NCBI GenBank assembly: GCA_965250285.1
Contig: OZ252299.1
Location: 2,304,001-2,368,000, forward strand
Length of the DNA stretch: 64,000 nucleotides
DNA from: Myxococcota bacterium
GTDB taxonomy: Bacteria; Myxococcota_A; UBA9160; UBA4427
Direction of reading: 5' to 3'
Below the pieces are notes generated by a model. It worked only from the letters and a program-made list of their open reading frames with translations. It was not told the DNA's origin and did no database searches. Positions within the stretch are counted from its first letter, which is position 1; the number at the start of each line of letters is the position of its first letter. Shown in pieces: positions 13,413 through 18,340 of this stretch. The position numbers and the translations under genes are program-made.

Positions 13413-15482
13413 TCAGATGTTGAAGCGACCGACCTCTTCGTCGAGGACGCGCGCGCGCTCCGAGAGCTCGCCGAGGCTCTCCTGCATTCCGACCCGGCGG
13501 TGATTGCTCTCGCCCACCGCTTCGCGGAAGACCTGGATCGCCTGCAGGATCTGATCGCCCTGCTTCGCCTGCTCCTTGGTCGACGCGAGGATCTGCTCGA
13601 TCCGCGAGGCCACCACCTCGACGCTGCGGGTGATGTGCTCGCTCTCCTTGCGCTGTTCCTGGGTCGAGTGCTTGATTCGCTGGCCGAGGTCACGCATGTG
13701 CTCGACGGCGCGCGTGATGTCGGCACTCGCGTTGTCCTGCTCGTGCGTCCCGCGGTTCAGCTGCTCGGCGATCGTCCGCAGCTGGGTCATCTGCTCTTCG
13801 ACCTTCTCGATGTCGCGGGTCTGCCCCTCGGTCGCCGAGACGATGTCGTCGACGCGCCGCGCCGACTCTTCGGCGGCCTCACCGATGCCGCGCAGGATCG
13901 TGCCGGCCTCTCGTGAGAGGGCCACACCGTTGCGCACGCGATCGTTGCCCGTGTTCATCGCGACGACCGCCGCCTCGACACCGCCCTGCACGGCGGTGAT
14001 CAGCTCGGAGATCTCGCGGGTCGACCCGGCGGTGCGCTCTGCGAGATTGCGGACCTCTTCGGCGACGACGGCGAAAGCACGGCCGTGCTCGCCGGCCTGG
14101 CTCGAGATGATCGCGGCGTTGAGGGCGAGCAGATTCGTCTGCTCGACGACGCCCTCGATGACCTTGACGATCTCACCGATCGAGCCCGACTTGTCGGACA
14201 GATCGACGATGATCCTCTCGAGGCCCTCGAAGCTGACCTGGATCTCCTGCATGCCGCGCACGGTCTCGTCGACGCTCTTGACGCCCTCCGAGGCCTGGTC
14301 GGCCGTCTTGGCCGAGAGCTCATGCGTCTCGCGCGCGTTGCCCTCGACGCGCTTGACGGCGCCGAGCAGCAGCTGCAGCGCGCCCGACGTCGACTCGCTC
14401 GAGCCGTTCAGGATGTCGGCGCTCTGGGCAATCTCGCGAATGGCCGTGGTCATCTCGACGACCGAGGACGCGGTCGCGTCGATGGTCTCCGAGAGGCTGT
14501 CCATGTGCGTCGCGATCTGGCCGATGGCGACGTCCATCTGCGACGCCGCCGCCGAGGTCTCCATCGCGGTGCCCGAGAGAGTCTCGACGTTCGTGTTGAC
14601 GTCGCTGATCGAGTGGTGGATGCGCTCGATCGCCTCGCTCGTCCCTTCGACGGCCTGCTCCTGTCGCGTGGCGTCGCTGGCCATCGACTCGCCGGCGAGC
14701 TCGAGGGTCGACGTCACGCCGCCGACGGCCCGGGTGTTCTCGCGCACCTGAGAAACCAGGCCACGCAGGCTGCCGGCCATGCGGTTGAACGCCCGGGCGA
14801 GCTCGCCGATCTCGTCCTCGGAGCCCACCGCGACCTGCACCGACAGATCGCCCTCGGCCATGCGGCCGGCGCCGTCGACGAGGTCGATGATCGGCGTCGC
14901 GATCTGACGCCGCATGATGGTCGCGCCCAGGTAGCAGAAGCCGAGCGCCGCCAGCAGAACGCCGCCAACGATCAGCATGAAGACGCGCGCGAAGGCCGTC
15001 AGCTGGCCGGTATCCATCTGGATGAACACCAGGCCCTGCTCCTCGCCGTCGACGAGGATCGGCTCGGTCAGCTCGAGCCGGCCCGGATGAAAGCGGTTGC
15101 CGACCTGGGGCGCCTGGGGCACCTCGAAGTTGGTCACGTCCGATCGCAGATAGCCCGCGAAGGCCTCTCCGCCCTGGTCGTAGACCACGGCGGCCATGAC
15201 GTGCTCTTGTGCCGCGAGGGCGCTGAGCGTCTCCTCGGCGGTCTGTGCGTCGTTGAAGAGGAGCGCAGCCGACGAGTTCATGCCGACCACGCGGGCGAGC
15301 ACCTCGCCCTCACGCACCATGTCGCCGCGAAACGCGACGAACTGAAACGCGAAGATCGCCCCCGATACGAGGACGAGGGCGATGACGGTGGTGAGCATGT
15401 AGCTCACGACCAGTCGGTTGCGAATCGACGTCGAGGCCATGAACGACGCCCCAGGGAGCTTGACCTTGCCTTCCATCGGCAC
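13413..15482 (-). CDS. Methyl-accepting chemotaxis protein with CHASE8-like periplasmic domain and HAMP
   Basis: TM - NSSAALLFNDAQTAEETL - TM - DEIGELARAFNRM - QTNLLALNAAI..AGEHGRAFAVVAEEVRNLAERT. Confidence 0.9.
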   Translation of the reverse strand: MPMEGKVKLPGASFMASTSIRNRLVVSYMLTTVIALVLVSGAIFAFQFVAFRGDMVREGEVLARVVGMNSSAALLFNDAQTAEETLSALAAQEHVMAAVVYDQGGEAFAGYLRSDVTNFEVPQAPQVGNRFHPGRLELTEPILVDGEEQGLVFIQMDTGQLTAFARVFMLIVGGVLLAALGFCYLGATIMRRQIATPIIDLVDGAGRMAEGDLSVQVAVGSEDEIGELARAFNRMAGSLRGLVSQVRENTRAVGGVTSTLELAGESMASDATRQEQAVEGTSEAIERIHHSISDVNTNVETLSGTAMETSAAASQMDVAIGQIATHMDSLSETIDATASSVVEMTTAIREIAQSADILNGSSESTSGALQLLLGAVKRVEGNARETHELSAKTADQASEGVKSVDETVRGMQEIQVSFEGLERIIVDLSDKSGSIGEIVKVIEGVVEQTNLLALNAAIISSQAGEHGRAFAVVAEEVRNLAERTAGSTREISELITAVQGGVEAAVVAMNTGNDRVRNGVALSREAGTILRGIGEAAEESARRVDDIVSATEGQTRDIEKVEEQMTQLRTIAEQLNRGTHEQDNASADITRAVEHMRDLGQRIKHSTQEQRKESEHITRSVEVVASRIEQILASTKEQAKQGDQILQAIQVFREAVGESNHRRVGMQESLGELSERARVLDEEVGRFNI

Positions 15483-15485
15483 TTC

Positions 15486-16043
15486 CTACTCCACGACCTG
15501 GGCGATGCGAAGCAGGCGCGAGCTGATCTTCAGCCCCGCCGCATCGGCGGCCTTCTTGTTGATCACGAAGCGGATCTTGTCGTCGACCGTCACGAAGTTC
15601 GCGACACCGCCCCGCTTCGCGAAGCCATCGTTGTCCGAGACGGTGAGGACGCTGCGCTTGCCGAAGGTCGCCAGCACTTCACTCTCGTCGCCCTTGCGAC
15701 CGGCCGCGACGTAGAGGATGTGACAGCCGCGCGAAGCGAGGACGCTGGGCGTGGGCTTCACGACGACCTCGCGCTCGCCGACGGCCCGGCCGTTGATGCT
15801 GTCGGTGGCGACCTGCGTGAACGATGCGTCTCCGAGCACGCAGATCTTGACCGGATCCGACTCGTCGCTGAACGCGGATTCGGGCCACTCGACGAAGCGA
15901 ACGAAGTTGAAGAGATAGGCCGCCTGCACGTCGTTGGCCGACGGGCTCCCCGCCGCCGACGCCTGCAGCGCCACGAAGCCGATCCCCGCGAGCGCGCATG
16001 CGCCGACCGCCGCGGCGAACTTGCGAATCGTGGACGTCTCCAT
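15486..16043 (-). CDS. yfiR: YfiR family periplasmic protein
   Basis: VQAAYLFNFVRFVEWP, ICVLG, CHILYV, LTVSD, RFVIN..AA..AGLKISSRLLRIA. Confidence 0.9.
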   Translation of the reverse strand: METSTIRKFAAAVGACALAGIGFVALQASAAGSPSANDVQAAYLFNFVRFVEWPESAFSDESDPVKICVLGDASFTQVATDSINGRAVGEREVVVKPTPSVLASRGCHILYVAAGRKGDESEVLATFGKRSVLTVSDNDGFAKRGGVANFVTVDDKIRFVINKKAADAAGLKISSRLLRIAQVVE

Positions 16044-16169
16044 CGAACCCTCCGAGTGGCCGTCGAGGCACGCGCAACGAAGTCGGCCGCGCACACGCCT
16101 CGTCAGCCGCATCGACACGCCGCGTCCGTTGGACGACGCACGTCTCGAGCGACTCCTGCGTACGCCCTC

Positions 16170-16381: not shown

Positions 16382-17122
16382 TCACGCGAGATGCGATTGC
16401 AGTGCGGCGCGAACCTTCTCGGGATCGGAGCGTTGCTGATAGTTCTCGGACTGATCCATCCAGACGATCGTGCCGGAGGCGTCCGCGAGAATCGTCGTCG
16501 GCACCGGCTGGGGTCGCCCGGGCGGCCCGGTCTGGATCAACTGATTTCGCAACCCGAATCGATCGGTCACCTCGAGGTCGGGATCGGCGAGCATGATCGC
16601 CTTCAGACCGTGCTTCGTGCGGCCTCGCGCGATCGCACCGGGCGAGTCAGTACACACCGTGACGATCTGAACGCCCTTCGCGTCGAGCTCGGGCCGAAGC
16701 TCTTCCCATCGCCGCAACTCGGCGACACAGTAGGGTCACCAGTGGCCGCGGAAGAACTTCAGCAGGATCGGCCGCCCCTCGATGCCCGAGAGCGTGAAGG
16801 GCTTCGCATCGTCGTCGAGGGCCGTGACGTCGGGCAGCTTCGTGCCGACACGCACGGCGTCGGGCGCCACCTGCTGGCGGCTGATCGCGACGAGCACCGT
16901 GAAGAAGCCCCCCGCCGCGAGCCCGAGCCCACCGAGCAGGCCCCCGATCCAGCCGGGTGAGCTCGTCAGGGCCGAGGCACCGAGCCCCGCCGCGACGACC
17001 CAGCCGACGACGAACGGGGTGCGCGCGCCCTCGAGGGCCACAGCGTTGGCGCGGCGAAACCAGAGCACCGAGGTGACGGCGAGGATCGTGAAGGAGACGA
17101 TTCCGAGTGTGAATCCGCTCAT
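16382..17122 (-). CDS. Selenoprotein: membrane-anchored peroxiredoxin-like (AhpC/TSA, redoxin) protein with UxxC
   Basis: ORFs 16736..17683 and 16382..16717 are in frame across TGA 16736-16738: KFFRGHW-U-PYCVAELRRW. Three N-terminal TM segments; SECIS-like hairpin follows the UGA. Confidence 0.9.
16705..16735 (-). promoter_or_regulatory. Putative bacterial SECIS element
   Basis: After UGA: CCC-UACUGU-GUCGCCG-AGUUG-CGGCGAU-GGG; 7-bp apical stem, loop starts after 16 nt. Confidence 0.65.
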
Positions 17123-17311
17123 GGCCGAGGCTCCTTCTGGCTGGCACAGCTGGATCGAACCGACCGGGCGCTGCAGCGAGTCTCGCACGCAGCGCGCCGC
17201 CGGGCGACCCGATCCGCCTGACGGCTTCGATGCCGGAGGGTACGCTTCGTTCTCGATGCTCGCGGCCGTCCGAGCCGAACCGAACCGCGACCGCCCACCA
17301 CCGAGGTCCTC

Positions 17312-18340
17312 ATGGAACGACCGATCCTGCTCGCCGGCGTGCCCGGCTCCCCCTACTCGCGCAAGATGCGCGCCGTCCTGCGCTACCGACAGATCCCGCA
17401 CCGGTTTCTGTCGGCGCACACGACTGCCGTGAAGGGCCTGCCGCCGACACCGCGGCCGCTGCTGCCAGGCATGTGGTTGCCCGAAGGCGACGACGGCTGG
17501 ACGGCGGTGAGCGACTCGACCTTTCAGATGGCCGAGCTCGAACAGCTCTACCCCGAGCGAAGCCTGCGCCCGGTCGACGGGGGCATCGCCTTCATCGACG
17601 ACCTGATCGAGGACTACGGCGACGAGTGGGTGACGAAGCCGATGTTCTTCTACCGCTGGGGCATCGACGAGAACGTCGATCACGCGTGCAATGTGCTGCC
17701 GCTCTGGAACATCGGGGTCCCCGATGCGTTCGTCGAGCAGTTCCGGGGCTCGTTCGGCCAGCGCCAGATCGATCGGCTCTCGGGCGTCGTCACGGGCGAC
17801 CTCGAGGTCTGCGGACCGATCATCATGCAGAGCTACGAGCGACTGCTCGCGATCCTGCGCGACCGGCTGGCCGCGAGCCGCTTCGTGCTCGGCGAGCGGC
17901 CGGGCGCGGGCGATTTCGGCCTGTACGGCCAGCTGACCCAGCTGGTGGGCGTCGAGCCCACTTCGATGGCCGCGGCGCGCGCGATCGCGCCGCGCGTCAT
18001 GAGCTGGGTCGACGTCGTCGAAGACCTCTCGGGGCTCGAGGTGTCGGGCGACGCGGGCTGGGACGGGCGCGACGCCGTACGCGAAGGCCTGCGCGACCTG
18101 CTGGTCGAGATCGGCCGCACCTACGTCCCCTTCATGCTCGCCAATGCCGCGGCGGTCGACGCCGGCGACGAGCGGATGGAGTGCGAGATCGACGGCCAGA
18201 AGTACTGGCAGAAGTCGTTCGGCTATCAGCGCAAGTGCGTGGGCTGGCTGCGCGAGAAGTACGCCGCCCTGGCCGACGACGATCGCGCCTTCGTCGACGC
18301 GACCCTCGCCGGCACGGGCTGCGAGGCGCTGGTGGCCTGA
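17312..18340 (+). CDS. Glutathione S-transferase family protein
   Basis: GSPYSRKMRAVLRYRQIP, SDST, EDYGDEW, FVLGERPGAGDFGLYGQL. Confidence 0.85.
   Translation: MERPILLAGVPGSPYSRKMRAVLRYRQIPHRFLSAHTTAVKGLPPTPRPLLPGMWLPEGDDGWTAVSDSTFQMAELEQLYPERSLRPVDGGIAFIDDLIEDYGDEWVTKPMFFYRWGIDENVDHACNVLPLWNIGVPDAFVEQFRGSFGQRQIDRLSGVVTGDLEVCGPIIMQSYERLLAILRDRLAASRFVLGERPGAGDFGLYGQLTQLVGVEPTSMAAARAIAPRVMSWVDVVEDLSGLEVSGDAGWDGRDAVREGLRDLLVEIGRTYVPFMLANAAAVDAGDERMECEIDGQKYWQKSFGYQRKCVGWLREKYAALADDDRAFVDATLAGTGCEALVA

Follow-up and report, generated by a model that had tools for sequence, protein, structure and literature searches.

Does the stretch between positions 16,382 and 17,122 hide a membrane-anchored selenoprotein, and if so, which face of the inner membrane would it serve? 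The window (the whole 64,000-nucleotide stretch analysed) comes from a Myxococcota genome of 6.25 Mb and 68.6% GC, here called G000. An earlier note, made from the letters alone, had proposed a hidden selenoprotein with three transmembrane helices and a UPYC redoxin domain, acting on lipid peroxides or membrane thiols.

The in-frame TGA and its hairpin

A single frame of 246 codons runs on the minus strand from an ATG at 17122 to a TGA at 16382, and its sole internal TGA is codon 129, in the motif FFRGHW-U-PYC. This bears out both the UGA claimed at the first Cys position of FRGxWCPxC and the open frame claimed to continue past it. The gene and its elements are as follows.

16382..17122 (-): gene for a 246-aa Prx-like UxxC redoxin, three-helix-anchored, predicted selenoprotein
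17131..17135 (-): probable ribosome-binding site AGGAG, 8 nt 5' of the ATG, from the sequence
16736..16738 (-): in-frame TGA, codon 129, first CxxC position, putatively read as selenocysteine (Sec)
16708..16726 (-): bacterial SECIS-like hairpin, 7-pair stem, AGUUR loop, 16 nt past the UGA
16412..16849 (-): AhpC-TSA/Redoxin domain, residues 92-237

A promoter scan of the gene found no sigma-70 site. Because the Pfam match on the read-through protein spans residues 92-237, the TGA falls inside the domain.

Could G000 insert Sec at this codon? A profile search found selA, selB and selD above curated cut-offs, and the genome has a tRNA-Sec (selC) with anticodon UCA, so that all four genes the earlier note had proposed to look for are present. 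Throughout the class, selA was found in 92 of the 95 genomes that have a family match (cross-read by eye), and the three misses are 68-88% complete. The SelD of G000 (G000:C1:5312234-5313154, L010) is apparently of the Cys type and lies within a 781-aa open frame, probably an N-terminal domain fusion.

The TGA is conserved. Matches at E<=1e-20 occur in 95 of 201 class genomes, and 120 of 120 matches carry one in-frame TGA. The alignment to Cys homologs that had been proposed as a check places Cys opposite the UGA and shows that full-length Cys orthologues exist: the protein database holds 157 relatives, and among the 120 listed, which are mostly full length and about 44-60% identical, Cys is invariant at the Sec site. 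When the codon was read from DNA in 116 distinct family genes (156 matches, less 30 duplicates and 10 in which no start codon lay in range), it was TGA in 108 and TGC or TGT in eight. The family is also present in genomes labelled Pseudomonadales. As claimed, gene callers split these genes: databases hold N-terminal halves as separate proteins ending FFRAHW or FFRGHW, and since the family is mostly held cut at the UGA, its architecture is hidden there. A further check, for TGC or TGT in raw reads, is answered in part, at the level of contigs: those of three public runs, one of them possibly the source DNA, have no other letter at the TGA.

The claimed SECIS-like hairpin is present, and what stands out is its conservation, with frozen synonymous sites. 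It has a 5-nt AGUUG loop on 7 pairs (-11.2 kcal/mol) and agrees with all four constraints of the bacterial consensus model in section 5 of PMC13188914, which gives a 3-9 nt loop, a 4-16 bp stem, a G within the first two loop positions, a spacing of 16-37 nt and an energy of at most -7.5 kcal/mol. The folding energy is unremarkable alone (z -0.87 in a 44-nt window; -2.73 in a 26-nt window chosen around the hairpin). All seven stem pairs are kept in 106 of the 108 TGA genes and in none of the eight Cys genes, and at least six are kept in 108 of 108 compared with three of eight; one gene has a compensatory stem change, C-G to U-A. At codons 133, 134, 137 and 138, one codon is used in 99-100% of genes, at loci of 43-74% GC, whereas the top codon reaches only 34-73% at 27 other conserved A/P/G/T/V/R/L/S sites. 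Leu136, which lies in the hairpin loop and belongs to these 27, is TTG or TTA in 107 of 108 genes.

The selenoprotein call is thus supported by the Sec machinery, by the conserved TGA with its Cys orthologues and by the constraint on the SECIS element, and on this sequence evidence the window gene almost certainly encodes a selenoprotein. Prx-like (UxxC) selenoproteins are an already known kind and have been on record for a long time (PMC1088965; Table 1 of PMC13188914).

Several related genes were seen along the way. A second hidden UxxC redoxin lies in the window at 42751-41474 (-), with its TGA at 42508-42506 in RSAVW-U-PPC; it has no evident signal or anchor and is fused to a C-terminal DsbD_N-like domain, and its motif recurs in a paralogue at G000:1311442-1311924. 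Another TGA redoxin of this genome (YRGFW-U-PPC; G000:C1:4424366-4424623, L028) has the AGUUG loop and the spacing of the window gene on a different stem sequence. Seven more distant UxxC redoxins (L152-L158, in G028, G039, G040, G016, G104, G002 and G128; 29-36% identity) carry an in-frame TGA and have hydrophobic segments at their N-termini, and six of the seven lack the hairpin register of the window gene; they suggest a wider set of anchored Prx-like selenoproteins. At two loci labelled Halieaceae (L092, L093) the copies are broken, with split alignments in both; in L092 the Sec codon reads TAA and the hairpin is intact. In the main Cys clade (Candidatus Binatia and others; L082, L086-L091), a divergent upstream gene, taken by eye for a TetR-like regulator, is conserved, and tblastn gave one weak match to the TetR of the window.

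Domain chemistry, anchor and GST neighbour

What chemistry would the domain support? The read-through protein scores 82.6 bits against Pfam AhpC-TSA (cut-off 26) and 76 bits against Redoxin (cut-off 26.6), with 17.1 against AhpC-TSA_2 (cut-off 27), and no NCBIfam model reaches its cut-off on it. K122, R125, H127, W128 and U129-P-Y-C132 are invariant, and P208 and R231 are near-invariant. AlphaFold2 (121 sequences; pLDDT 93, pTM 0.88) predicts three N-terminal helices and a Prx-type domain, whose fold is nearest AhpE (5id2, Z 21.8, rmsd 1.9, 151 aligned) and Bcp1 (Z 21.7). Further fold matches are ResA (Z 17.9) and the prostamide/prostaglandin F synthase of humans (PGFS; Z 15.9), the latter at rank 29 in the fold search, absent from the best 60 of 85 profile hits and 12% identical to the window protein in the structural alignment. 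By sequence, ResA and TlpA are among the protein's best hits in the set of solved structures.

The peroxiredoxin triad (PxxxTxxC...R) is missing: its Pro is replaced by Arg125, its Thr by Sec and its Arg by Pro208, and the NCBIfam BCP model NF006960 scores 36.9 against a cut-off of 140. Nor does the protein, with its three helices, a charge bias of +5 and an NCBIfam ResA score of 42.4 against a cut-off of 170, fit the TlpA/ResA/CcmG class, whose members have one N-terminal anchor or signal and export their CxxC domain. PRX_like2 proteins are defined in PMC3514251 as keeping CxxC while the other two Prx triad residues are missing, and the window protein has this combination, with UxxC. In addition, a proline occupies its cis-Pro site, and an Arg precedes Sec by four residues. 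PRX_like2 is presumably the CDD label cd02970. PGFS belongs to the Prx-like CxxC proteins, has its Arg40 four positions ahead of Cys44 and is described as reducing a lipid endoperoxide (PMC12938796); the spacing of Arg125 matches that of Arg40, a parallel rather than a test. PrxL of Caulobacter, likewise Prx-like with a CxxC motif, is reported to have no peroxidase activity (PMC3322552). For the window protein a membrane thiol or peroxide role is plausible, and a lipid-peroxide role plausible but unproven.

The anchor and the neighbouring gene are placed as follows.

17045..17116 (-): helix 1, residues 3-26, predicted transmembrane (AlphaFold2, hydrophobicity), N-terminus putatively outside
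16967..17023 (-): helix 2, residues 34-52, predicted transmembrane; preceding loop with R23, R24 and R34, cytoplasmic by the positive-inside rule
16886..16954 (-): helix 3, residues 57-79, predicted transmembrane
17312..18340 (+): divergent long-form glutathione S-transferase (GST) family gene, GSPYS motif; recurrent, not fixed neighbour

The three-helix membrane anchor claimed from the letters is supported by the AlphaFold2 helices and by the hydrophobicity of all three across the family; no Cys in the helices is conserved across the family. In the window protein, neither the N-terminus nor loop 2 contains K or R; loop 1 has three Arg, and two more follow helix 3. The K+R bias of the protein is +5, and the bias is +2 to +9 in 120 of the 120 listed Cys orthologues, with segment limits set by hand and not by a trained predictor. 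Under the positive-inside rule this distribution points to an N-out/C-in topology and thus to a cytoplasmic active site, so that the catalytic domain likely faces the cytoplasm. When the anchor was folded by itself, Foldseek found nothing at E<=0.001, and the structures that resembled it were generic three-helix bundles alone (best Z 8.0); its only Pfam hit was DUF4328, below threshold. From this outcome neither a new fold nor membership of a known family follows.

The divergent GST neighbour had been offered as a functional clue. The gene is there and the association is enriched: of the 83 genes with the standard anchor charge (see below), 13 have a long-form GST no more than 2 kb away, where about 0.7 would be expected at the density of G000 (10 long-form GSTs), a density that may be low for other genomes. 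The clue is nonetheless a loose one, since 70 of the 83 have no GST within 2 kb. Both GST subfamily and orientation vary among loci (divergent at the window, co-directional or downstream elsewhere), and the tree requires 11 changes to account for the GST at 13 loci. Thus, the association is recurrent, and a fixed operon with GST was rejected. Near the 33 genes with reversed charge GST is absent, which is not significant alone (0.27 expected). Other catabolic families are somewhat enriched near the gene, a cytochrome P450-like family (named by eye) being found at 11 of 53 loci (3.9 expected). Elsewhere in the window, 13413-16118 (-) contains a YfiR/HmsC-like periplasmic protein gene (NF053591 above cut-off) and then a 689-aa chemoreceptor-like gene (named by eye), a neighbourhood that was met again only in the same-genus genome.

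A charge-reversed clade and its scsB neighbours

Are all anchors of the family charged alike? A second copy in G000, at 3873447, shares the TGA and the hairpin at 47% identity, and its bias is 0 or -1 depending on the start (+1 under one narrower segment choice). Across the 116 genes the anchor K+R bias is bimodal, with 33 genes at -4 to 0 (hereafter reversed) and 83 at +1 to +10 (standard), a split that four segment choices all reproduce, one of them with slight overlap. Mean net charges at the N-terminus, loop 1, loop 2 and after helix 3 are -0.17, +3.11, -0.14 and +0.96 in standard genes and +1.55, +0.09, +1.97 and -0.64 in reversed genes; the soluble domain is more acidic in the latter (-6.3 vs -1.1). 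Because the mean bias of the reversed clade is weak (-1.4, range -4 to 0), a mixed or dual orientation is possible. Two truncated rows among the 10 dropped for their start codon look reversed, and the other eight look standard or truncated.

In a quick IQ-TREE analysis of the soluble domain alone (123 rows, residues 93-245), the 33 reversed genes form one branch (SH-aLRT 98) nested among others. The tree indicates that the charge reversal arose once, and as one evolutionary event it does not make the gene counts independent tests. Among the database proteins nearest the paralogue, the bias is at most 0 in 18 of 19 UGA-cut N-terminal halves and in two full-length Cys proteins. Natural Cys members are known for both charge types (e.g., P0002 and P0123/P0124), which allows a topology test without Sec expression. 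Wherever at least two copies of a genome were scored (11 genomes, G000 included), both types are represented; among the 80 genomes scored, many of them incomplete, 53 hold the standard type only and 16 the reversed type only. At L180 (G037:C10) a reversed and a standard copy stand in tandem, 1119 nt apart, and at L077 they are about 5 kb apart. One reversed-type TGA copy (L083) lies on a contig labelled Nitrosopumilus with 63% GC, probably a binning error.

A scsB/dsbD gene lies directly upstream on the same strand in 17 of the 33 reversed genes and in none of the 83 standard genes (16 of 30 compared with 0 of 73 where at least 1.5 kb of upstream DNA was present); the other 16 reversed genes have no scsB within the DNA fetched. 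This adjacency marks the paralogue clade and not the window gene. The adjoining scsB genes encode DsbD_N, DsbD_TM and thioredoxin domains with intact Cys pairs. They are each other's closest relatives (56-61% to the query) in a comparison in which many genomes showed one match and the best 5 candidates per genome were scored, and a dedicated second scsB for the reversed paralogue is only partly supported. Of 14 other scsB loci, six, among them the second scsB of G000, are immediately followed by a redoxin gene whose product has a hydrophobic leader. In Caulobacter, ScsB is described as keeping exported TlpA, PprX and PrxL reduced, and prxL lies near scsB (PMC3322552). The bimodal anchor charges and the scsB-linked reversed clade are what is new in this analysis.

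Mechanism, alternatives and known systems

How might the two forms work? SelB would insert Sec129 at the UGA of the window gene, and the three predicted helices would hold the redoxin in the inner membrane, N-out/C-in, with its active site in the cytoplasm. In thioredoxin-type chemistry Sec129 would attack an O-O or S-S bond, the substrates being membrane-associated hydroperoxides or disulfides on the cytoplasmic side; Cys132 would resolve the intermediate to a selenenylsulfide, and thioredoxin or glutathione may re-reduce the enzyme (trxB and gshB are present in G000). The charge-reversed paralogue would be inverted, facing the periplasm and re-reduced by ScsB. Taken as a whole, a duplicated membrane selenoenzyme serving both inner-membrane faces is the best explanation, and a reasonably probable one. 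We lean slightly towards its more specific form, in which one copy was flipped after duplication by moving a few K/R, the cytoplasmic form being tied to glutathione/GST and the reversed paralogue, predicted to face the periplasmic side, being fed by ScsB.

Other readings bear on the protein itself. That the TGA is a nonsense mutation or a sequencing error, or divides two genes, is barely credible: the database halves ending FFRAHW or FFRGHW would suit it, but TGA stands in 108 of 116 genes with Cys in the remainder, the hairpin has stayed frozen, G000 has the Sec machinery and a stop there would fall inside a folded domain. An error or pseudogene was rejected on the conservation of TGA and hairpin. 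A canonical peroxiredoxin of BCP/AhpE type, with Cys132 peroxidatic, could draw on AhpE and Bcp1 as top structural matches; the substituted triad, for which we rejected it, and the low BCP score make it highly improbable. Better placed, though still rather doubtful, is a pure protein-disulfide reductase of the TlpA/ResA kind that acts on membrane-protein cysteines and has no peroxide substrate. The ResA and TlpA sequence hits, the UxxC motif plus proline, the PrxL result and the presence of disulfide reductases among ScsB substrates speak for it, whereas the fold is nearer AhpE/BCP (Z 21-22) than ResA, the invariant Arg at -4 matches the PGFS numbering and GST genes are enriched nearby.

Alternatives also exist for the orientation of the reversed copies. 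The protein may be a real selenoprotein with one orientation in both paralogues, or a mixed one in the second, the charge shift then being drift in one clade and the scsB neighbour inherited from a single insertion. Such an account would explain why the reversed group is one clade with a bias near zero and why about half of its genes lack scsB in the fetched flank. We consider it unlikely: all four segments shift as inversion requires and the soluble domain is more acidic, the pattern recurs in nearly all database halves nearest the paralogue, redoxins with hydrophobic leaders fill the slot behind scsB at other loci, and the scsB copies adjoining reversed genes are closest to each other. It is also conceivable, if quite improbable, that the two orientations pair as an antiparallel heterodimer and pass electrons across the membrane, as opposite-bias homologues are reported to form antiparallel dimers in other families (PMC3962082) and both types lie close together in G037 and at L077; but most scored genomes, many of them incomplete, hold one type only, and the helices have no conserved Cys as an electron relay.

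If a duplicated selenoenzyme does serve both membrane faces, it would add a selenoprotein to the DsbD/ScsB envelope-reduction pathway, as a periplasm-facing Sec substrate, and would be a natural topology inversion that moved a whole enzyme domain to another compartment. Should the paralogue be inverted, the pair would put the positive-inside rule to a clean test in nature, on an enzyme whose soluble domain is large, and would give a tractable way of learning, in bacteria, what Prx-like CxxC/UxxC proteins reduce. Within its lineage the family is common, as its presence in 95 of the 201 class genomes searched shows.

How does the family compare with known systems? A literature search of titles and abstract openings, with most subscription papers and all supplements outside it, returned no description of the anchored family or of a flipped pair. 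The nearest relatives are the Prx-like (PF00578) and 'Redoxin family' (PF08534) UxxC selenoproteins (Table 1 of PMC13188914; PMC1088965), which share the Pfam domains, a thioredoxin-like UxxC in place of TxxU, a bacterial SECIS and the splitting by gene callers. The window family differs in its three-helix anchor and its two charge-opposed paralogue types; the accessible text of PMC13188914 has no 'membrane' passage on the Prx-like UxxC family, and that of PMC1088965 has 0 occurrences of membrane or transmembrane. With PRX_like2 proteins, including human PGFS/PRXL2B, the window protein shares the CxxC layout without the other triad residues, the Arg at -4 and the cis-Pro-site proline, but it has Sec for the first Cys, a polytopic anchor and low identity to PGFS.

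The ScsB pathway of Caulobacter crescentus (ScsB to TlpA/PprX, PrxL and ScsC; PMC3322552) is similar in that a scsB-type gene is followed by a Prx-like CxxC gene. This likeness concerns the paralogue and not the window gene, and where the Caulobacter partner is a signal-peptide Cys protein, the one here is a selenoprotein with three helices. Opposite K/R bias with opposite orientation is known for small membrane homologues (PMC3962082): in YdgE/YdgF, YdgQ/YdgL and DUF606, as in the present family, duplication was followed by redistribution of K/R between the membrane sides. Those proteins are described there as transporter or electron-transport subunits that pair up, whereas inversion of the reversed paralogue would relocate a 160-residue catalytic domain and change its electron donor.
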